Virus record (IMG/VR): IMGVR_UViG_3300002835_000025
Length of the DNA: 64,000 nt
Strand: one strand, 5' to 3'
Source of the DNA: a virus
Part shown: positions 56,741-64,000 of the stretch, piece after piece
Numbering within the stretch: the stretch's first letter is position 1
How the letters are laid out: every line of letters starts with the position of its first letter
Translations under genes and position numbers: made by a program
The notes under the pieces: model-generated
What the model saw: the letters and a program-made list of their open reading frames with translations, nothing else
Told to the model about the DNA's origin: nothing
Database searches by the model: none

Positions 56741-57170
56741 CCATAATTCACCATGTAATGACCTTAATAAACTTGTAACTGAAGTAGCTGTTCTGCAGAA
56801 TGTAGTTTACAAGATAGATAATACAGTTGCAGAAATTGCTAAAGCATCGTCAGAAGTATCAAGATTATTAATAGTACACGACAACAGACTAAACAATCTT
56901 GAGAATAATAATAAAGAAACTACAACTGATGTCAAGGATCTATACAAGAAAATGGAAGAAACTACTAAAGAGATTGTGGATAAGTTAGATGATATGGAAT
57001 TTCGTATTGAATCTAAACTTAAAGAACATGAAGAAAAATCAGATGAATATAGAGAAGATATTTCTGAAAGGTTGAATGCATTAGAAACTTGGAAGTGGTT
57101 AGTAGTTGGTGGCAGTATAGTAATTGGATACCTTATTGACCATTCAGATATATTGAAACTATTCAAATAA
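56733..57170 (+). CDS. Coiled-coil protein with C-terminal membrane anchor
   Basis: Heptads; RL..LE.WKW.VVGG TM segment. Confidence 0.6.
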   Translation: MSDHNSPCNDLNKLVTEVAVLQNVVYKIDNTVAEIAKASSEVSRLLIVHDNRLNNLENNNKETTTDVKDLYKKMEETTKEIVDKLDDMEFRIESKLKEHEEKSDEYREDISERLNALETWKWLVVGGSIVIGYLIDHSDILKLFK

Positions 57171-57175
57171 TAATA

Positions 57176-57238
57176 AATTAGTATTGATAAGACCAGTTAA
57201 TTTATTATACATCAAACCCAGTCAAAAGTAAACATTAT
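57176..57238 (-). repeat. Minus-strand early promoter with conserved leader, copy 2
   Basis: Near-identical to 30359-30422; GTTTAC-N18-TATAAT on - (57204-57233). Confidence 0.75.
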
Positions 57239-57308
57239 TCCCTAAAATAATTCAACAGTTATCACTTTATAGGTGATGCTGTGTCACGAGTAAAATTTGC
57301 TAAATAGT

Positions 57309-57337
57309 GTGTACAAATATCAAAAATATGATATAAT
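57309..57337 (+). promoter_or_regulatory. Early promoter for the modification operon
   Basis: GTGTAC-N17-TATAAT. Confidence 0.7.
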
Positions 57338-57368
57338 ATAATCTTTATTCTACTACAAAAGGTGATCT

Positions 57369-58475
57369 ATGAAATTAGCAGTATTGAAATTAGGCGCAAG
57401 AATTGTTTTTGGCCAAAAGGTTGGATCAAGCGGAGGATCAGGTGAAGCTGCTTCTTTAATAGAAATGATGGTTGAAGGTGGATGTGAAGTTGACTGTTAT
57501 ACTAAGGTATTGTCTTCAGATCAACAAAACAGATCAGTCAACGTGCTTAATATTGAAGACCATTATGAGAATATTACCAGTAATGTATACGATGCATTAG
57601 TAGTCATTAATGGCGCTGTTAATTTCTTTGGTGGCCAAGAAGACAGACCACAGATTCTTAATTATAAAGCAATAAACAACTTTAATGGAAAAATCATTTA
57701 CTTGTACTGTGACCCGAATTTATCTCTAAAACAAATTTGGCCTTCTATTGAGAAGAAACCCTGGGCTTCAAATTGGAATAAGGAAGATATTAATATTACA
57801 AAGCCTATTAATGTGATTTCGCAATCATACAATTTAGAAAAAAATAAAGCACTATTTGAGAAAAATGGATATCCTGTAGAATCTATTGTGCAATATGATT
57901 TCCAAAAATTCCCAATGATGAAACCAAGAGAAACTTCTATTCTAGGAAAGACTGTTGATTTGTCTTATGGAGGAACCTTTAGATCTGGTAGAAGAGAAAA
58001 GAAATTAATAGAATTCTATTTTGGACTCCCAGAAGATATTTCGGTAGAAGTATTCGGTAAAATTAAAATTACGGACTTTAATGAGAAAAAAGTAACCGGA
58101 TTACGTCCGCCAAAGTTTCTTCCTCCAGTCGATTATAATAATATGATTCAGAAAATGTCTTCTTCTAAAACCCATATTGCTATTGGTGATAATCAATACC
58201 CAGATTTTGAAATGATCTCTCAAAGAGTATATGAATCTATTATGGCGGGAACTTTATTATTCATTGATAATGAATTTGATAAGAATAAAAGAATTTTTGG
58301 AAACAATACTGAACTTTCCAATTTGCTATATATCAATGACAGAAATCAATTTGCAGATAGATTAAAATCATTGTCAGATTCTGATTACGAATCACTAATA
58401 GAACTTCAACATTCATGTGTAGATTTTAATAAATCAGAATATTGTTTAAACTTTGTAAAACTTTTGGAGGTATAA
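57369..58475 (+). CDS. bgt: DNA beta-glucosyltransferase homologue (GT-B)
   Basis: T4 BGT-like motifs YD.L.V.N...NFFGG, WP....PW, YGG.FRSG.RE.K..EF, IGD..Y and RV.E......ID.EFD. Confidence 0.85.
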   Translation: MKLAVLKLGARIVFGQKVGSSGGSGEAASLIEMMVEGGCEVDCYTKVLSSDQQNRSVNVLNIEDHYENITSNVYDALVVINGAVNFFGGQEDRPQILNYKAINNFNGKIIYLYCDPNLSLKQIWPSIEKKPWASNWNKEDINITKPINVISQSYNLEKNKALFEKNGYPVESIVQYDFQKFPMMKPRETSILGKTVDLSYGGTFRSGRREKKLIEFYFGLPEDISVEVFGKIKITDFNEKKVTGLRPPKFLPPVDYNNMIQKMSSSKTHIAIGDNQYPDFEMISQRVYESIMAGTLLFIDNEFDKNKRIFGNNTELSNLLYINDRNQFADRLKSLSDSDYESLIELQHSCVDFNKSEYCLNFVKLLEV

Positions 58476-58476
58476 T

Positions 58477-59289
58477 ATGGAACAAGAAAAAGACGTATTT
58501 GATGACAGTTCAGCAGTATTTTTTAAAAATGGATTCCTTGGTAAAATAAAATTTTCCAGTGCATGGCATATTGCATTCATTAGCAGATATACTTCAACAT
58601 GCACAGAAATTACCAAAATCAAAAGAAAAAATACTGAAGATTATGTTACTATATTAGATGTTGGGTGTGGTAATAAAACATTCTATCAATTTTGGTCTAA
58701 AAGTTTTGAAAGTTTATTGCGTCCCAGAGTGGATTACTTGGGTTTAGAATATGAACAATCTGTTGTAGATGAAGCAAATTCACCAACTGGAAGAGAATCT
58801 GTCAACAAATACAAAGTCATTCACTGTGATCTAAATACTACTTCATTTCATGACATTAAGCATCACGACAAATATGACGTAATTCTGTTGCAGGAAATTC
58901 TAGAACATATTCCAAAAGAAACTGCATTGAAACTTATAAAAGAAGCATCTGAATTGGTATCAGATAGAGGATTTATTGTCATATCATCTCCTAATCCAAA
59001 AAAGGACGAAGGTCAAGAATTTGTATGGCCAGAGAATCACATTCAAGAGTTTACTTTGGACGAAATGCATGATATGATAACCACTAATGGATTAAGTATC
59101 AGAAGAGTCAATGGGTGGTTAGGTAAAGCCAGATATTTTAAAAAGCATTTGAGTTCTAACAATATGGCTCTATATAACCAATTAAAAGGGATTTCGCAAG
59201 GATTCGCGGCAAGTACGATAGCATTTCTAAATCCAAAGATTGCAGAATGTTATATTTTTATTGCAGAAAAAAATAAGGGTATATTATGA
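58477..59289 (+). CDS. Class I SAM-dependent methyltransferase
   Basis: ILDVGCG, YLGLE, YDVILLQEILEHI, ISSPN and HIQEFT. Confidence 0.85.
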   Translation: MEQEKDVFDDSSAVFFKNGFLGKIKFSSAWHIAFISRYTSTCTEITKIKRKNTEDYVTILDVGCGNKTFYQFWSKSFESLLRPRVDYLGLEYEQSVVDEANSPTGRESVNKYKVIHCDLNTTSFHDIKHHDKYDVILLQEILEHIPKETALKLIKEASELVSDRGFIVISSPNPKKDEGQEFVWPENHIQEFTLDEMHDMITTNGLSIRRVNGWLGKARYFKKHLSSNNMALYNQLKGISQGFAASTIAFLNPKIAECYIFIAEKNKGIL

Positions 59290-60998
59290 AAATCGTAATA
59301 TTTTCAGGTGGCACTGGTTCAGTTCAATTACAGAAAGGTCTATATGAAACATTTGGTAAAGATGTATTAGACTATACGGTCATTACAAACTTAGCGGATA
59401 ACGGTCTTTCTACTGGAGAATGCAGAAAAGTTATGGATGGAAAAATTATGGGTCCGTCCGATTTAAGAAAGAATCAAATGCTAAGAGCAAAACTGGAAAA
59501 TAGTATATCAGAAAAATTGTATGAATTCCTAAATGACAGAATAACTATTTCTGCCGATGAAGTTCAATCGGTGCTTTTAGACAGAATCCATAAACTAGAC
59601 ATTGATATGTTTTATAGAGGTGTATTAGCTTCTGGAGTGAATCAATTCTTTGATAGCCAGTTATCATCACAGATAGATTATATTGACTTTTCAATTTCTA
59701 ATATCATTTATTCTGGAATAGCAAAGAAACATAACTATTCATTGGATTCTGCAGGAAAAGTATTTGAAGGAATATTAGACATTCCAGAGAATAGTGTAAT
59801 TTCTAATACTGATTCTCCGATGTATCTTATGGCTAAAACCCAATCTGGTTATATTATACATGACGAAGCTGATATAGTATCATGGAATAATCCTGATGAT
59901 AAAATCGTAGATTGTTTCTTTGTTGATAACCATAATAAGCCAGTAATTCCAGAATTATCAGAACTTTCGAAATCTGTAATATTATCAGCAGACATTATAA
60001 TTTTTTCATCCGGGACTCAATGGTCATCTCTTATTCCGACATATAAATCCATAGGATTCTCTGAAACTATATCAGAATCGAAAGCAAAGAAATATTTAAT
60101 TCTTAATGCTAGTCAAGATGCTGATATGAAAGGTGTATCTGGTGACGAATTGATTAATATTCTTATGGGTTATTTACCAAAAGATACTACTATCATTTCT
60201 GCTTTAGACGGTGACCCTTTATTAATTCCTGATTCGTATCAAAAAATCTCAGCTTTCTTACTTAATCAGGGTAAACACGACGGGAAGGCATTGGTAAAAA
60301 CTATTTTTGACCACTATTATAATTACCCAAAGATTAGTGACCAATACGTTTTCGATTATGATGATACTATTGTTGCTAGAGGCTCGCAGCACTCTAAAGT
60401 ATCTAAATCCAATGTCAAAAGAGTTCAAGAACTTTATAATAAGACTAATAATGTTTGGATATCTACTGGAAATACTATCAATGCTTTGCATGGAAATTTT
60501 TCTAATATTAAAGCATTAGCAGATGGTGGTGTTAATCTATACAAATTTAATAAAGAAGGAATTCCGCAATTCGAAAAATGCCTAGATAATGATTTACTTT
60601 TCTCTAAAAATGATATAGAATATATTACGGCAGATATTGTAGACTGTGGAATTGATATTACTAAAATCCAAATACGTGGAAAGGTAATGATTTCTATCAA
60701 ACCAATATCTCCTGAATACAGACATAGCATTAAATTATTATTAGAATCTAAACTAAGCAAATACGATCTATTAATTAGAATGTCTGGAAGAACAACGATT
60801 GACATTACAAAACCAAACTTGGATAAAATTTTAGCAACAGAAACTCTATTCGTTAATGATTTTACTTATATTGGTGATGAAGGTGAATCTGGCAATGACC
60901 ACCAAATATCACAATGTGGACATTGCAATTTTATACCAGTTAAAGATGTCAAAGATACTAACATGTACTTAGCAATTCTATTGGGAAAAGATGATTAA
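59286..60998 (+). CDS. CofD/YvcK(GlmR)-family domain fused to a HAD-IIB (phosphomannomutase/phosphatase-like) domain
   Basis: N-terminal FSGGTG, DNGLSTG, GPSDLR and ADIIIFSSGTQWSSLIP; C-terminal VFDYDDT, ISTG, SGRTTIDI and YIGDEGESGND. Confidence 0.8.
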   Translation: MKIVIFSGGTGSVQLQKGLYETFGKDVLDYTVITNLADNGLSTGECRKVMDGKIMGPSDLRKNQMLRAKLENSISEKLYEFLNDRITISADEVQSVLLDRIHKLDIDMFYRGVLASGVNQFFDSQLSSQIDYIDFSISNIIYSGIAKKHNYSLDSAGKVFEGILDIPENSVISNTDSPMYLMAKTQSGYIIHDEADIVSWNNPDDKIVDCFFVDNHNKPVIPELSELSKSVILSADIIIFSSGTQWSSLIPTYKSIGFSETISESKAKKYLILNASQDADMKGVSGDELINILMGYLPKDTTIISALDGDPLLIPDSYQKISAFLLNQGKHDGKALVKTIFDHYYNYPKISDQYVFDYDDTIVARGSQHSKVSKSNVKRVQELYNKTNNVWISTGNTINALHGNFSNIKALADGGVNLYKFNKEGIPQFEKCLDNDLLFSKNDIEYITADIVDCGIDITKIQIRGKVMISIKPISPEYRHSIKLLLESKLSKYDLLIRMSGRTTIDITKPNLDKILATETLFVNDFTYIGDEGESGNDHQISQCGHCNFIPVKDVKDTNMYLAILLGKDD

Positions 60999-61743
60999 TT
61001 TAATTATTATAGCTGCTGGAAACGGCAAAAGAATGGGAAACATTAATGTTCCAAAAGTATTATATCCAGTAAATGGAGTTCCTAATTTAAAAAGAATTAT
61101 TACTAATGCTATAGAGTCCGAAGTATTTGACTCTATAGATTTAGTAATTAAAGATTCTGCAGTAAAAAGTTTTAAAGAATTTTTGGATAATAGTGAATTT
61201 GATATTAAAATAAATCTAATTCCTATAAATTCGGGACTAGGAGATGGACATGCAATTCTTTCCATGTATAAGAATGCTCATCAATATAACAATTCTATAT
61301 TGGTATGGGGCGATGTTTATATTGATAGTCCAATGATATTCAAAGAATTGAAAGATGTTGGAAGTTCTACTGGTAATAACTTTTCAAGCGCAGTAATTCC
61401 GGTATGTACTGAAAAGAATCCTTACGTTACTATATTGACTGATTCTAATATGAACGCATTATCAGCAGACTTCTCTAAACTTGGAGAAACTCATTTGGAA
61501 GGATTCCACGATCAGTCTATATTCTATATCAATAACGATGTAATATATGATAGTCTTCAAAAAATGCATGAAGTGTTATGGAAAAATGGACAATACATTA
61601 CTCAATCAAAAGAATTAAATTTCTTACATATTCTTCATTATTTAAGAAATATTAATTACCCAGCAAATTGTTATATTACTGAGTACCCAACAAAGTCGTT
61701 TAATAGTATTGAAGAATTGACAAAATTGGAAAATTCATTATGA
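60991..61743 (+). CDS. GT-A-fold nucleotidyltransferase (GlmU/MobA-like)
   Basis: IIAAGNGKRMG...PKVL, GDGHAI, VWGD and FNS.EEL. Confidence 0.85.
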   Translation: MINLIIIAAGNGKRMGNINVPKVLYPVNGVPNLKRIITNAIESEVFDSIDLVIKDSAVKSFKEFLDNSEFDIKINLIPINSGLGDGHAILSMYKNAHQYNNSILVWGDVYIDSPMIFKELKDVGSSTGNNFSSAVIPVCTEKNPYVTILTDSNMNALSADFSKLGETHLEGFHDQSIFYINNDVIYDSLQKMHEVLWKNGQYITQSKELNFLHILHYLRNINYPANCYITEYPTKSFNSIEELTKLENSL

Positions 61744-62054
61744 TAAAAACCGATAAAAAATATATCCTATTGGGATCATCGAGACTTAGAAATTTTAAAC
61801 AAGTTAATGATTCTGCTTGGAGATTCTCTTGCAATTATTGTGGTGATTCTGTAAAGAATCCAAAGAAGACCCGCGGAAATATATACATGAAACACCACAA
61901 ATTTCTTTATAAGTGTTTTAACTGCGGAATTTCTAAATCTATTTCTGAATTCATTAAAGATTTGGATTCTAATTTGCATACAAAATATGAAATGGAAAAT
62001 TATAAAGAAGGATCCTCAATCTCACCAGATTTATCAATGTTCGGAGTAAAATGA
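61740..62054 (+). CDS. Primase gp61 zinc-binding domain only (no TOPRIM domain)
   Basis: F.C.YCGDS.KN..K.RG and YKCFNCG...S...F; ends at 104 aa. Confidence 0.75.
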   Translation: MIKTDKKYILLGSSRLRNFKQVNDSAWRFSCNYCGDSVKNPKKTRGNIYMKHHKFLYKCFNCGISKSISEFIKDLDSNLHTKYEMENYKEGSSISPDLSMFGVK

Positions 62055-62128
62055 AACTTTTGTTGCATCAACTATTAATTCCATTAATTACTTCCATAGT
62101 AATAACATACATAATTTACATATTGTAA
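62051..62128 (+). CDS. Possible 25-aa hydrophobic peptide
   Basis: MKLLLHQLLIPLITSIVITYIIYIL; ATGA overlap and GGAG RBS. Confidence 0.35.
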   Translation: MKLLLHQLLIPLITSIVITYIIYIL

Positions 62129-62155
62129 GGAATCGCATGACACACAGGGGAATAC

Positions 62156-63148
62156 ATGGCTATTAGAATCTTAAGCCCAAAGAGTGAATATATTACTGAT
62201 TATCCAACTGCTATAGAATTTTCAGAACAACAGGCATCAATAATTTGGTTTCCAGATGAAATAGAAGTAGAAAAGGATCTTCATGATCTGAAGACGAATT
62301 GCACAGAATCAGAGTATCACGGCGTAATATCAACACTGAAATTATTCACTCTATATGAATTAAATGTTGGTAATGATTACTGGCAAAATTATGTCAGTAA
62401 AGTCTTTCCTAGACCAGATATTCAAAGAATGGCCTCTACCTTCTCGTTTATGGAATTAGGAGTACACGCTCCATTCTATAATAAAATCAACGAAGTTCTT
62501 GGATTAGATAATGTTGACTTTTATAACTCTTACAAAGAAGATGAAGTACTAGCCAATAGAATGAATTGGATTGCAAAAAGAACTACTAAAAAAGATTCTG
62601 TGTACAATGTCCTAAAATCGGTTGGAGTGTTTTCAATGATTGAAGGAGCTATTCTTTATAGTTCATTTGCATTTCTTAAACATTTCAACTCGGCAGGAAA
62701 AAATAAACTCATCAATATAAATGCTGGAATAAATTTTTCAGCAATTGATGAAACCTTACACTCACAAGCAGGCGCATGGTTATTCAGAACATTAAAGTCA
62801 GAAGCTTTCGCCGATGAACAATTGACCTCTATTGAGTTAGTTGGCCTCAAAGAAGAATTGATAGAAACCGCAAGAGTTATTCTAGAGCACGAATCAATTA
62901 TTATTGATAAAATTTTTGAGAAGGGCCATATTAAGGGAATAACAAACACCCAATTAAAAAACTTTGTTGAATCTAGATTAGATATATGTCTAGAAAATCT
63001 TTCATATAGTGGAATATTTAAACCGTCTTATAACCCAATTAAAACCTGGTTCTATAAAGATATTGAAAGCTCAACTTTACATGACTTCTTTTCAAGTCAA
63101 GGTAATGATTATAGTCGCAATTGGTCAGAAGGAAAATTTCAATGGTAA
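62156..63148 (+). CDS. nrdB: Ribonucleotide reductase class I beta subunit
   Basis: W.P.EI, E..VH..FY, EG..LYSSFA, DE.LH and DFF. Confidence 0.93.
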   Translation: MAIRILSPKSEYITDYPTAIEFSEQQASIIWFPDEIEVEKDLHDLKTNCTESEYHGVISTLKLFTLYELNVGNDYWQNYVSKVFPRPDIQRMASTFSFMELGVHAPFYNKINEVLGLDNVDFYNSYKEDEVLANRMNWIAKRTTKKDSVYNVLKSVGVFSMIEGAILYSSFAFLKHFNSAGKNKLININAGINFSAIDETLHSQAGAWLFRTLKSEAFADEQLTSIELVGLKEELIETARVILEHESIIIDKIFEKGHIKGITNTQLKNFVESRLDICLENLSYSGIFKPSYNPIKTWFYKDIESSTLHDFFSSQGNDYSRNWSEGKFQW

Positions 63149-64000
63149 GAGAATTATCAATCTATGAAGAATTAGGTGAAGAACGTAAACTACTACAAGA
63201 GAATGGTTCTCTTCCCCATTGGTGCACTACTGCCGCATGGCAAATGCTAAAAGAAAATTATCTTTCAAACAAATATACTGATTTGAAGTCTGTATATTCT
63301 AGAATAGCAAAACACGCGGCAACATATACTAATGATCCAGCAACATGGGAATTAAAGTTCTTTGACTTATTATGGAATGGTTGGTTAGCAGCATCAACAC
63401 CAGTGTTATCTAATATGGGAACTGGTATTGGATGTCCTGTATCATGCTCAGGCGGATTCATTAGTGATTCTGTCTATTCATTTTATGAATCACAAAAGGA
63501 AGCTGCGGTATTATCAAAAAATGGATTTGGAACTTCTGGTTATTTAGGTGACATCAGACCAAGAGGATCTAAAATATCTGGAATAAAAGGAAGTTCGTCT
63601 GGAGTTCTTCCAGTATTCAAAGACTTTGTTCAAATGTCAAGAGACATTAGCCAAGGAAGTCAACGACGCGGAGCTTGGGCAGGTTATATAGAAATTGACC
63701 ATCCAGATTTCCATGAACTAGTCAATTATATTAACAAACAACCAGATGATGCAAATATTGGTTGGAATATTAGTAATGACTTTATTAAAAGATTAGATGC
63801 CGGAGATAAAGATGCTATTGAAAGATATCAAAAGGCATTGAAATTAAAAATGATTACAGGAAAAGGTTATTTTGAATTCATTGATAAAGTTAACGAACAA
63901 AATCCTGCAATGTATAAAGATTTGGGCCTTACAGTAAAAGCTTCCAATCTCTGTTCGGAAATACAATTATTCTCAGATGACGAACATACTTTTAGTTGCG
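63142..64000 (+). CDS. nrdA: Ribonucleotide reductase class I alpha subunit, 3'-truncated
   Basis: Open from ATG 63142 to the window end; STPVLSN, PVSC, IRPRGS, QGSQRRGA and SNLCSEI. Confidence 0.93.
   Translation, partial: MVRELSIYEELGEERKLLQENGSLPHWCTTAAWQMLKENYLSNKYTDLKSVYSRIAKHAATYTNDPATWELKFFDLLWNGWLAASTPVLSNMGTGIGCPVSCSGGFISDSVYSFYESQKEAAVLSKNGFGTSGYLGDIRPRGSKISGIKGSSSGVLPVFKDFVQMSRDISQGSQRRGAWAGYIEIDHPDFHELVNYINKQPDDANIGWNISNDFIKRLDAGDKDAIERYQKALKLKMITGKGYFEFIDKVNEQNPAMYKDLGLTVKASNLCSEIQLFSDDEHTFSC

Follow-up and report, generated by a model that had tools for sequence, protein, structure and literature searches.

A CofD/YvcK-fold protein fused to a mutase-like HAD domain in a T4-like phage, and its candidate role in the supply of NDP-hexose for DNA glycosylation

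The question raised by the 64,000-nucleotide stretch of viral DNA analysed here (the window) is what a phage gains from a protein in which a CofD/YvcK-type domain is joined to a phosphomannomutase (PMM)-like HAD domain. A preliminary description of the DNA identified the two sets of motifs, and proposed that the protein might act as a transferase coupled to a phosphatase, forming a phosphorylated adduct which is then dephosphorylated, as in trehalose-phosphate synthase/phosphatase. Our literature search found no publication that joins CofD to a phage glucosyltransferase or YvcK to bacteriophage DNA modification, nor one that characterizes the gene module described below, and a PHROGs search returned no meaningful family. 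The analysis must proceed from the two domains, from the genes that accompany them in phages, and from the loci in which their relatives are found in cells.

The two domains and their active sites

The gene lies at 59286..60998 on the + strand, begins with ATG and encodes 570 amino acids; it is the sole long reading frame in the region, and the opposite strand there is rich in stops. Residues 1-346 (59286..60323, + strand) form a CofD-fold domain, and residues 347-570, together with the stop codon (60324..60998, + strand), cover a domain of the HAD-IIB type. The AlphaFold2 model of the whole protein has a pLDDT of 96.5 and a pTM of 0.93, and Foldseek supports both folds. Residue conservation was scored over 93 family members, across which the three motifs that characterize the protein (SSGTQWSS, DYDDT and GDEGESGND) are kept. 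The fusion of the two folds in a phage is real. The predicted structure of the N-terminal domain is CofD-like, and the residues of both active sites are intact.

The identity of the N-terminal domain has to be considered separately at the level of the fold and at the level of the curated subfamily. At the level of the fold, Pfam CofD (PF01933) covers residues 3-330 with an E-value of 5.4e-21 (75.5 bits, where 30 is the cut-off), the sequence matches in the PDB are the YvcK-type UPF0052 structures 2ppv, 2hzb, 2o2z and 2q7x, and Foldseek returns the same four structures, with 2o2z at E 3e-16 and TMt 0.79, as well as CofD 3c3d at 8e-11 and FbiA 6uw7 at 3e-8. A profile of the domain (A3) searched against the PDB meets YvcK 2ppv at E 2e-26 and CofD 3c3d at just 1e-3, in the N-terminal GGTG region alone. 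At the level of the subfamily, the domain falls below the cut-offs of both the CofD equivalog TIGR01819 (10.6 against 257.45 bits, with only residues 3-39 matched) and the YvcK model TIGR01826 (60.4 against 196 bits). The CofD/YvcK identity proposed in the preliminary description thus holds for the fold and fails for equivalog membership: the domain is a distinct subfamily nearest to YvcK/GlmR, and is an orthologue of neither CofD nor YvcK.

The likeness of residues 1-346 to their best match, YvcK/GlmR/CuvA (UPF0052, TIGR01826; 2O2Z, 2HZB, 2PPV, 2Q7X), extends to the GGTG motif, to ADxG(G/K)S(S/T)G with its first Asp, to the (P)GD/SD motif and to the N...D region, and the residues G8, G9, G11, D38, G40, G56, S58, D59, K62, R85, G243, S248, N274, D278 and D280 are invariant in the family. 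There are also differences. The loop SSGTQWSS (residues 241-248; 60006..60029, + strand) replaces the GPGS(L/F)(Y/F)TS loop of YvcK, aligning exactly to the ‘GPGSLYTS’ of 2ppv/2hzb; within it G243 and S248 are invariant and S241, T244 and W246 are at least 90% conserved, and the replacement, which had been noticed from the sequence of this one protein, is a signature of the family. About 60 residues (approximately 64-125), helical in structure, are inserted relative to YvcK, and the residue after the invariant D38, where GlmR has its second catalytic Asp, is Asn in the fusion and in the family consensus, as it is in the S. epidermidis YvcK 2ppv, which likewise has DN at this position. Unlike YvcK, the domain is found in phages, is fused to a PMM-type HAD and is encoded beside a nucleotidyltransferase and a glycosyltransferase rather than in a yvcJ-yvcK-whiA cluster.

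The metal ligands of FbiA are D45 and D57 (PMC7253369), and the catalytic Asp of B. subtilis GlmR is D38 (PMC13046274). The aspartates D38 and D59 of the phage domain correspond to the FbiA pair by motif position alone. Because the domain keeps GGTG and two aspartates at the positions of the FbiA ligands and the GlmR catalytic residue, it appears, as judged from its sequence, to be an enzyme.

The C-terminal domain is matched by the HAD-IIB model TIGR01484 over residues 355-548 (E 5.7e-7, below the cut-off at 29.8 against 41.8), and by Hydrolase_3 (E 0.0026), while PF03332 gives no match in the fusion itself and is recorded for several of its homologues. The four catalytic HAD motifs are all present and are conserved in the family; they include motif I, DYDDT (residues 357-361; 60354-60368, + strand; D357/D359/T361), motif III, represented by K514, and the PMM-style motif IV, GDEGESGND (G530-D538; 60873-60899, + strand). 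D357, D359, K514 and G530 are invariant, and T361, G395 and N396 (SGN motif), D531, E532, G536, N537 and D538 are at least 90% conserved. The Foldseek matches are HAD-IIB enzymes, a subfamily marked by its C2B cap, with PMMs from 7e-11 and T6PP at 2e-8, and the profile of the domain (A2) meets L. lactis alpha-PGM 4bnd at 2e-14, P. falciparum PMM 7myv at 1.5e-10 and PMM2 at 3e-8. The eukaryotic-type PMMs and the L. lactis alpha-PGM PgmH (2FUE, 2AMY, 7MYV, 4BND) are the best match by profile and by fold, and share with the phage domain motifs I-IV, including GD(x)5GND, as well as the G-x-T-T-I-D segment. The phage domain differs from them in being only about 17-20% identical and in being joined to a CofD-fold domain. 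In the alignment with PMM, whose residues are named by the PMM2 numbering (R141 etc.), the invariant R479 falls on the ‘EER’ Arg, R463 on the ‘R-N-G’ Arg, and T504/D506 on ‘S-x-D’, whereas the second cap Arg of PMM, that of the ‘GR’ loop, has no counterpart because of a deletion in the fusion’s domain. R479, T504/D506 and K514 thereby coincide with substrate and catalytic positions of PMM. These comparisons suggest a domain of the phosphomannomutase/alpha-PGM type in which the distal phosphate-binding Arg is kept, and which resembles a mutase or bisphosphatase of hexose phosphates more than a trimming enzyme of the trehalose-P-phosphatase type; it may be either mutase or bisphosphatase, both of which fit the sequence.

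The operon and its phage relatives

The fusion is the third of four or five genes on the + strand whose ends overlap or abut, so as to form an operon. The first (57369..58475, + strand; 368 aa) encodes a DNA beta-glycosyltransferase homologous to T4 BGT (PF09198, E 2.7e-30), which phmmer aligns with 1bgt at E 8e-44 over residues 64-354, with homology over both domains; the YGGxFRSGxRE and RVxE segments, presumably the UDP-binding motifs, align with conserved residues. The second (58477..59289, + strand; 270 aa) encodes a class I SAM methyltransferase of the UbiG-like small-molecule type (Pfam Methyltransf_31/23/12/25/11, E 3e-10 to 5e-6; UbiG TIGR01983, E 2e-10), and its stop overlaps the start of the fusion by 4 nt. 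This gene is absent between the glycosyltransferase and the fusion in three other phage loci (L004, L006 and the P0024 contig), and is an accessory specific to the lineage of the window’s phage. Downstream, overlapping the end of the fusion by 8 nt, lies the gene for a sugar-1-phosphate nucleotidyltransferase, or NTase (60991..61743, + strand; 250 aa), and this is coupled translationally, through a 4-nt overlap, to a gene for a zinc-ribbon protein (61740..62054, + strand; 104 aa) which has only weak Zn-ribbon matches and shows no conservation beside the module in the other loci compared. No terminator-like site was found in 57000-62300; the accompanying promoter scan was at chance level (37 found against 34.9 expected), so the scan shows solely the absence of terminator-like sites. 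The surroundings consist of glycosyltransferase and nucleotide-metabolism genes, including RNR.

The assignment of the NTase rests on Pfam NTP_transf_3 (E 2e-7), on the GlmU N-domain models (E approximately 1e-11) and on its fold, since the AF2 model (pLDDT 94.6) has as its top Foldseek matches HddC 5xhw (1e-15), GlmU, RmlA and GalU; the highest TMq is 0.81. None of IspD, CofC or MobA is among the best 50 Foldseek matches, and an activation of alditol phosphates of the IspD/TarI type, which weak sequence matches of the NTase had raised, was rejected because the fold search does not support it.

When 57000-63000 was compared by megablast with 50,697 phage records, no match appeared, and tblastn found solely gp1 of Ralstonia phage RsoM2USA and one uncultured huge phage. 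The trio is met again in distant giant phages: the order BGT-like gene, CofD-HAD fusion, NTase is kept in RsoM2USA and in further contigs of large phages, at 56%, 43%, 41% and 40% identity, and gp2 of RsoM2USA has been named a beta-glucosyltransferase (PMC8504454). In all phage loci examined the NTase adjoins the fusion and the BGT-like gene adjoins or neighbours it; in one locus (L006) a guanylate-kinase-like gene comes after the NTase.

The phage origin claimed for the DNA is supported by T4-type neighbour genes, and the likely acceptor of the sugar is indicated by a second, overlapping contig, which shares with the contig that carries the window’s operon an identical 111-aa protein and nothing else. 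On this contig, outside the window, there are hmC-related genes: approximately 14-15 kb downstream of the operon lie a T4 endonuclease IV homologue and a TS-family gene, the latter 54-61% identical to genes of T4-like phages annotated as dCMP hydroxymethylase or thymidylate synthase, and the contig also carries a dCMP deaminase. An hmC acceptor would thus be available in the T4-like phage of the window, and the BGT homologue is the presumed user of the sugar donor made by the module.

The cassette in cellular genomes

The preliminary description treated CofD/YvcK proteins as normally stand-alone. This view does not survive for the subfamily here, whose CofD-like domain is usually fused or tightly coupled to HAD, nucleotidyltransferase and glycosyltransferase domains. 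Nor is the fusion a lone oddity, for it belongs to a large family of 194 clusters (50% identity, E<=1e-30), and it is in every case accompanied by a sugar-1-phosphate nucleotidyltransferase and a glycosyltransferase. About 440 matching stretches occur in 185,579 reference genomes, and the family is common to T4-like and giant phages, gut Firmicutes, Bacteroidales, a methanogen and others. The NTase is adjacent to the fusion in 36 of the 41 cellular loci, where the other neighbours are GT2 synthases, GT8, Wzx flippases and epimerases; in the Clostridia-type loci a GT2 synthase lies directly upstream of CofD-HAD and the NTase directly downstream. Natural fusions connect all four activities, for CofD-HAD-NTase proteins were found in five of the proteins tested, and GT2-CofD-HAD, GT2::CofD-like, CofD-like::GT2 and NTase::CofD-like::GT2 arrangements also occur.

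The HAD component is more variable. In seven Gemmatimonadota/Proteobacteria loci an unrelated HAD-IA protein of the beta-phosphoglucomutase family, detected in these distant cassettes by a relaxed motif scan and BLAST, lies between the CofD-like gene and the NTase. Since the same slot is filled by either HAD-IIB or HAD-IA, two different mutase-type HADs appear to have been recruited for one role. In some distant cassettes (e.g. L050, L082 and L085) the DNA examined contains no HAD gene of either type, and it is the NTase rather than the HAD that accompanies the CofD-like domain most constantly. The family tree was built with FastTree from 88 rows, from which every second A1 row and the duplicate loci L002, L005, L007 and L008 had been omitted.

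Among published loci of this type just one has been connected with a product, the glucofuranan island of Mycoplasma fermentans PG18, which comprises a GT2 synthase, a CofD-family gene and an NDP nucleotidyltransferase, and which is associated with a beta-1,6-glucofuranose capsule (PMC11658790). Going by the published gene descriptions, its gene set is that of the Clostridia-type loci; the acceptor, unlike that of the phage module, is a capsule polymer and not DNA. The CofD-family gene of the island is annotated as two pseudogene halves (PMC11658790), so that its contribution to the formation of glucofuranose is hypothetical.

The proposed reaction and its rivals

The reading that we prefer, with a probability of about 60%, places the fusion at the centre of a portable module that makes NDP-hexose by three activities, and which in this phage supplies a T4-BGT-type transferase that glycosylates hmC-DNA. 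That one module serves both DNA glycosylation and polysaccharide synthesis implies that its product is a soluble donor. The context points to the supply of an activated sugar and not to the making of a new free adduct. On the fused protein, hexose 6-phosphate would be converted to hexose 1-phosphate via hexose 1,6-bisphosphate, with the PMM/alpha-PGM-type HAD binding and resolving the bisphosphate as a mutase or a 6-phosphatase, a role proposed because of its fold, its profile alignment and its conserved distal-phosphate Arg. The CofD/YvcK-like domain would form or prime the bisphosphate by nucleotide-dependent phosphotransfer. The NTase, to go by its fold, would then turn hexose 1-phosphate into NDP-hexose, the BGT homologue, given its homology and the nearby hmC genes, would move the hexose onto hmC-DNA, and the extra methyltransferase of this lineage may, speculatively, O-methylate the sugar. 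The contribution of the CofD-like domain, assigned by elimination and by analogy, is the weakest of these steps, and we advance it tentatively, as somewhat doubtful. If the HAD is a self-sufficient reversible mutase, no third enzyme is needed to make hexose 1-phosphate, and the CofD-like domain would then do something else; alternatively, it could work on the NDP-sugar itself. To our knowledge just two activities have been established for the fold, the transfer of phospho-lactyl groups by CofD and of uridylyl groups by GlmR, and neither is an anomeric phosphorylation.

The analogy is with pathways in which an anomeric kinase precedes a HAD phosphatase. In the GDP-/ADP-heptose pathway (HddA or HldE, GmhB, HddC or HldE) a sugar-omega-P becomes a sugar-1,omega-bisP, a sugar-1-P and finally an NDP-sugar; the proposed reaction logic is the same, as a likeness of mechanism alone, and in structure the phage NTase matches HddC best, whereas the phage module lacks both a kinase of the GHMP or ribokinase type and a GmhA isomerase. 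Phages are known to carry donor pathways of this kind near their DNA glycosyltransferases. AfhE/AfhF of HY126, with homologues in RB69 and DLP3, lead to UDP-arabinofuranose by an anomeric phosphotransferase, a HAD phosphatase and a pyrophosphorylase via a sugar bisphosphate (PMC13326640, PMC12838424), and the order kinase, HAD phosphatase, pyrophosphorylase has been established experimentally (PMC13326640). Phage-encoded supply of NDP-sugars for DNA glycosylation is also represented by the UDP-galactopyranose mutase of Rhizobium phage RL38J1 and the UDP-xylose pyrophosphorylase of Shewanella phage Thanatos. The window’s phage differs from the AfhE/AfhF phages in that a CofD/YvcK fold stands in place of the kinase and a PMM-type HAD-IIB in place of the GmhB-like HAD, and in that the base is hmC (T4-type gp42) rather than 5-hydroxycytosine; the papers on the arabinosyl/5-hydroxycytosine phages and on Thanatos make no mention of CofD or YvcK. 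With these precedents (HddA/GmhB/HddC; AfhE/AfhF, PMC13326640), the earlier idea of a phosphorylated intermediate that is subsequently dephosphorylated stays a live mechanism, though in modified form only; trimming of the trehalose-P-phosphatase type fits the mutase-like HAD less well.

Three other explanations of the CofD-like domain must be weighed against the NDP-hexose module. T4 relies on host UDP-glucose, and a phage might be freed from host galU/pgm if the YvcK-like domain were an accessory nucleotidyltransferase or NDP-sugar sensor that regulates the fused mutase, so that the module boosts an ordinary donor such as UDP-glucose. YvcK/GlmR is indeed the nearest relative by sequence and fold, the HAD domain is matched best by an enzyme of glucose phosphates, the L. 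lactis alpha-PGM, and GlmR, which handles UDP-sugars, is reported to act both as an accessory uridyltransferase and as a regulator that binds UDP-GlcNAc (PMC10128056, PMC13046274). A second, canonical sugar-1-P NTase always accompanies the module, however, which would make a GlmR-type NTase redundant; the YvcK equivalog score is far too low, the second catalytic Asp and the GPGS loop of GlmR are both replaced, and bacteria that already make UDP-glucose keep the module in specialized glycan loci, which argues for a special product. We consider this explanation unlikely. The Pfam name CofD and the analogy of the NTase/CofD-fold pair to CofC/CofD are all that favour a third explanation, the making or modification of a deazaflavin (F420-like) cofactor for the phage, and this is effectively refuted by the TIGR01819 score, by the far better profile match to YvcK than to CofD, by the sugar-1-P type of the NTase, and by the finding of no F420 genes (CofC/FbiD, CofE/FbiB or Fo synthase) in the neighbourhood of the fusion; its probability is negligible.

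The same pairing can be read as phosphodiester chemistry without F420. The NTase would make NDP-X, the CofD-like domain would move phospho-X or a sugar-1-phosphate to an acceptor hydroxyl (of a sugar phosphate, of DNA glucose or of hmC) with release of NMP, and the HAD would remove leftover phosphate, giving a phosphodiester-linked decoration or a new adduct. This would be a concrete form of the transferase-plus-phosphatase proposal in the preliminary description. Phosphodiester-linked sugars do occur on phage DNA, in SP-15. The most constant pairing of the module, an NTP_transf_3-type NTase with a CofD-fold enzyme, resembles CofC-CofD (FbiD/FbiA), aspartates at the metal-ligand positions (PMC7253369) and the GGTG motif are retained, and the guanylate-kinase-like gene of L006 could recycle released GMP. 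Against this, the same CofD-like domain, well conserved, occurs beside phage DNA glycosyltransferases and beside bacterial GT2/GT8/Wzx glycan genes, so that a common macromolecular acceptor is unlikely; the NTase folds like sugar-1-P NTases and not like CofC, IspD or MobA; the HAD, which has no counterpart in the F420 pathway, is mutase-like with a distal phosphate site; the domain lies outside the CofD equivalog; and the glucofuranan of M. fermentans, the sole polymer connected with an island of this type, is free of phosphate and of any other substituent (PMC11658790). Phosphodiester chemistry of this kind is quite improbable.

Within the preferred NDP-hexose module, a more specific and rather unlikely version is that the CofD/YvcK-fold domain carries out a reaction new to its fold, either a nucleotide-dependent anomeric phosphorylation by which a minor ring form of hexose 6-phosphate is trapped or a conversion at the level of the NDP-sugar, to give an unusual donor such as an NDP-hexofuranose. 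If this is true, the hmC of these phages bears a sugar never described on DNA, and the widespread orphan cassette of bacterial glycan loci would be explained and the function of the YvcK family clarified; the module possibly supplies the missing route to glucofuranose polymers. The sugars on phage DNA determine which restriction and defence systems a phage escapes, so that a new kind of modified DNA is to be expected wherever a new donor pathway is found. The module is compact, having two genes and three activities, and is built of uncharacterized enzymes; a defined reaction for its branch of CofD/YvcK would be the first for that branch, whose cellular relatives GlmR/CuvA matter in the cell-envelope homeostasis and virulence of Gram-positive pathogens.

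Fusion of a CofD-fold domain to a phosphomannomutase-type HAD domain

The joining of a CofD-fold domain to a HAD domain in one protein is real, far beyond what chance could produce. The gene (59286-60998, + strand) consists of 570 open codons, with a reverse strand full of stops. The CofD family of Pfam (PF01933) matches residues 3-330 with an E-value of 5.4e-21, far over its gathering score, Hydrolase_3 of Pfam matches residues 355-408 weakly, and the HAD-IIB model of NCBIfam (TIGR01484) matches residues 355-548 with an E-value of 5.7e-7. The three motifs on which the preliminary description based its proposal of a CofD/YvcK domain fused to a PMM-like (phosphomannomutase-like) HAD domain are all located in this frame: SSGTQWSS at residues 241-248, DYDDT at 357-361 and GDEGESGND at 530-538. 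Conservation was computed from an alignment of 93 family members with 29-55% identity, in which the N-terminal domain has 15 invariant positions, including GGTG, D38, D59, G243 and S248, and in which the HAD catalytic residues are kept, with full or almost full conservation of the nucleophile D357, the acid/base D359, the lysine of motif III (K514) and most positions in motif IV. An AlphaFold2 model generated from the same alignment has a pLDDT of 96.5 and a pTM of 0.93. When this model is searched with Foldseek, the N-terminal domain retrieves YvcK-type structures first (2o2z, E 3e-16, TMt 0.79), with CofD and FbiA next, which bears out the earlier fold assignment, and the C-terminal domain retrieves phosphomannomutases (from E 7e-11) above trehalose-6-phosphate phosphatases.

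The N-terminal domain has the CofD fold, yet it is neither CofD nor YvcK. Membership of the F420 CofD equivalog was rejected at 10.6 bits against a cut-off of 257, and membership of the YvcK subfamily at 60.4 bits against 196; a profile built from this domain only retrieves YvcK structures at 2e-26, and CofD at no better than 1e-3. Compared to YvcK, the domain has about 60 extra residues, helical in the model, after the GPSDLRKN motif, and SSGTQWSS in place of the GPGS(L)YTS loop. The first Asp of the GlmR catalytic pair is retained, whereas the second is replaced by Asn (GlmR residues from PMC10128056, PMC13046274), and D38 and D59 match, by motif position, the two aspartates with which FbiA binds metal and the nucleotide beta-phosphate (PMC7253369). 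Since it retains the first GlmR Asp and has aspartates at the FbiA metal positions, the domain looks, as judged from sequence, catalytic and nucleotide-dependent.

The C-terminal domain is a HAD-IIB domain of the phosphomannomutase type. A domain-only profile places the Lactococcus lactis alpha-phosphoglucomutase 4bnd first (2e-14), followed by Plasmodium PMM, PMM2 and PMM1. In the profile alignments the invariant R479 aligns with the arginine of the PMM 'EER' segment, R463 with that of 'RNG', T504 and D506 with the 'S-x-D' segment, and K514 with the motif III lysine; in PMM structures these residues contact the hexose bisphosphate at its distal phosphate and at its sugar.

The operon and its probable acceptor

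The fusion lies third in a row of five + strand genes whose ends abut or overlap, with a ribonucleotide reductase (RNR) downstream, and no terminator-like sites were found in the operon stretch. The first gene (57369-58475, +) encodes a homologue of T4 DNA beta-glucosyltransferase (BGT; PF09198 E 2.7e-30, T4 BGT E 8e-44) in which the YGGxFRSGxRE and RVxE motifs are conserved. Between it and the fusion, translationally coupled on both sides, lies a UbiG-like class I SAM methyltransferase (58477-59289, +), which occurs at this junction only in the phage lineage of the window, being absent there in loci L004 and L006 and in the contig of homologue P0024, and which may O-methylate the sugar before or after its transfer to DNA. 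The fourth gene (60991-61743, +) encodes a 250-residue nucleotidyltransferase. Its sequence matches are ambiguous (IspD, TarI, GlmU), but by fold it is of the sugar-1-phosphate type: the full-length matches to its model (pLDDT 94.6) are exclusively sugar-1-phosphate nucleotidyltransferases (HddC, GlmU, RmlA and GalU, with TMq up to 0.81), and its top 50 fold matches include no IspD, CofC or MobA. The operon ends with a zinc-ribbon protein of 104 residues (61740-62054, +), which is coupled to it by a 4-nt overlap and is not conserved beside the module in other loci. The RNR large subunit (63121-63999 and beyond; L007:13857-16562) has 901 residues in overlapping contigs, with inserted intein-splicing and HNH domains, and is followed by a SegE-like GIY-YIG gene and a staphylococcal-nuclease-like gene.

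Evidence about the acceptor comes from a related contig, L094, which is tied to the phage of the window by one identical 111-residue protein only, via a contig carrying the same operon. Some 14-15 kb downstream of the fusion gene (L094:8322-10739), a T4 endonuclease IV homologue (PF26887), a thymidylate-synthase-family gene and a dCMP deaminase occur together; the 222-residue thymidylate-synthase-family protein is 54-61% identical to the products of T4-like phage genes for which the annotation varies between dCMP hydroxymethylase and thymidylate synthase. If L094 belongs to the same phage, as is assumed here, then these genes make it very probable that the phage has 5-hydroxymethylcytosine (hmC), the acceptor of a BGT-type enzyme, in place of cytosine. 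Two genes of the thymidylate-synthase family are present in Ralstonia phage RsoM2USA (MG752970.1 7739-8398 and 334307-335206; loci L090 and L089): one looks canonical (242 bits), and the other, at a distance of about 6 kb from the module, is divergent (85 bits) and a candidate pyrimidine hydroxymethylase.

The module in phages and cells

The fusion family yields 527 matches in a 90%-clustered database and 874 in a 50%-clustered one (194 at E<=1e-30), mostly full-length proteins of about 530-680 residues, and the viral share of the nearest Atlas clusters is 81-100%. Among cultured phages only the jumbo phage RsoM2USA carries it, as the 'hypothetical' gp1 beside gp2, which its authors termed a beta-glucosyltransferase (PMC8504454). 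The order BGT-like gene, fusion, nucleotidyltransferase is conserved at 40-56% identity in contigs of 152, 200, 345 and 368 kb, where the module adjoins RNR, thymidylate-synthase-family, guanylate-kinase-like and MazG-like genes. The guanylate-kinase-family gene right behind the nucleotidyltransferase in the 368-kb contig (L006:10692-11351) may serve that phage as its hm-dCMP kinase, or may instead recycle GMP if the CofD-like reaction releases it.

A prokaryote scan with one genome per species gave 442 matching stretches. Of the best 80, about 40 encode the fusion at full length, and these belong to gut Firmicutes, Bacteroidales, Methanobrevibacter and Acidiphilium. The nucleotidyltransferase is the immediate neighbour in 36 of 41 cellular loci, and a 458-residue GT2 synthase lies directly upstream of the fusion in 15; other GT2 and GT8 enzymes also recur, as do Wzx flippases, an epimerase and a GT8-ABC fusion. 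BGT homologues are confined to the phage loci. In a FastTree phylogeny of 88 sequences, from which half of the family alignment rows and duplicate loci were left out, the five phage-context rows form one clade (local support 95) apart from two cellular clades. The fusion of L009 (JBJMWM010000041.1, 'Steroidobacteraceae MAG') falls inside the phage clade as sister to that of the 368-kb phage-like contig, and L009 is possibly phage sequence that binning assigned to a bacterial MAG; within 8 kb it shows no homologue of BGT.

The same parts are also joined and separated in other ways. The CofD-like, HAD and nucleotidyltransferase domains occur in single proteins (P0184, P0203, P0227, P0235, P0238), one protein combines GT2, CofD-like and HAD domains (P0198/L028), and members of this CofD-like branch that are more distant have the architectures GT2::CofD-like, CofD-like::GT2 and nucleotidyltransferase::CofD-like::GT2. 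In three loci the CofD-like and HAD domains are two adjacent genes, split at the domain border (L038:1804-3513, L049:80-1748, L052:8001-9861). Seven Gemmatimonadota/Proteobacteria loci (L054, L064, L066, L068, L072, L075, L087; e.g. L064:7926-11443) have, in order, a CofD-like protein of 660-718 residues with a GT-like tail, a HAD and the same nucleotidyltransferase as elsewhere, and here the PMM-type HAD has undergone non-orthologous replacement by an unrelated HAD-IA protein of 215-226 residues from the beta-phosphoglucomutase family (TIGR02009 E 1e-25 to 8e-33). Since both HAD lineages found in this slot include hexose-phosphate mutases acting via a 1,6-bisphosphate, the replacement provides independent support for a step at the level of hexose phosphates.

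A proposed route of sugar activation

Conserved adjacency and fusion link four activities, and the catalytic motifs of the module are all intact. The module serves glycosyltransferases of different families and acceptors of different kinds, DNA in phages and polysaccharides in cells, and we infer that it yields an activated sugar in soluble form. In this scheme the HAD domain would convert hexose 6-phosphate via the bisphosphate to hexose 1-phosphate, the nucleotidyltransferase would convert this to an NDP-hexose, and the BGT homologue would transfer the hexose to hmC.

For the CofD-like domain, the role that we favour is a nucleotide-dependent phosphotransfer that would form or prime the bisphosphate, because the three activities then make one linear route, for which the HddA/GmhB/HddC heptose route is a precedent. 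A second precedent is the AfhE/AfhF pathway to UDP-arabinofuranose, which operates in phages HY126, RB69 and DLP3 (PMC13326640). In the triple fusions the domains follow one another (CofD-like, HAD, nucleotidyltransferase) as the proposed steps do. This particular assignment is nevertheless doubtful, because no CofD-fold enzyme is known to form or prime a sugar bisphosphate, because the CofD-like domain is paired more constantly with the nucleotidyltransferase than with the HAD, and because the nucleotidyltransferase::CofD-like::GT2 fusions fit equally well an alternative in which the domain acts between the NDP-sugar and the transferase.

In Mycoplasma fermentans, an island that combines a CofD-family gene with genes for a GT2 synthase and an NDP nucleotidyltransferase has been tied to a capsule of unsubstituted beta-1,6-glucofuranose, so that the product of the module might be a furanose donor; the link is weak, because the annotation of the island lists the CofD-family gene as two halves of a pseudogene (PMC11658790). 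The natural splits between CofD-like and HAD genes suggest that these halves might be functional. Phage donor pathways for DNA glycosylation have been described for UDP-Araf (RB69, HY126, DLP3), for UDP-Galf by a mutase (RL38J1) and for UDP-xylose (Thanatos) (PMC13326640, PMC12838424), so this kind of system is known. The novelty lies in the enzymes, a distinct branch of the CofD/YvcK fold being fused to a PMM-type HAD, and no characterisation of this set was found in the literature on CofD/YvcK and phage DNA modification. The fusion is a well-defined member of an orphan, putative sugar-activation module, situated in a probable T4-type hmC glycosylation operon.
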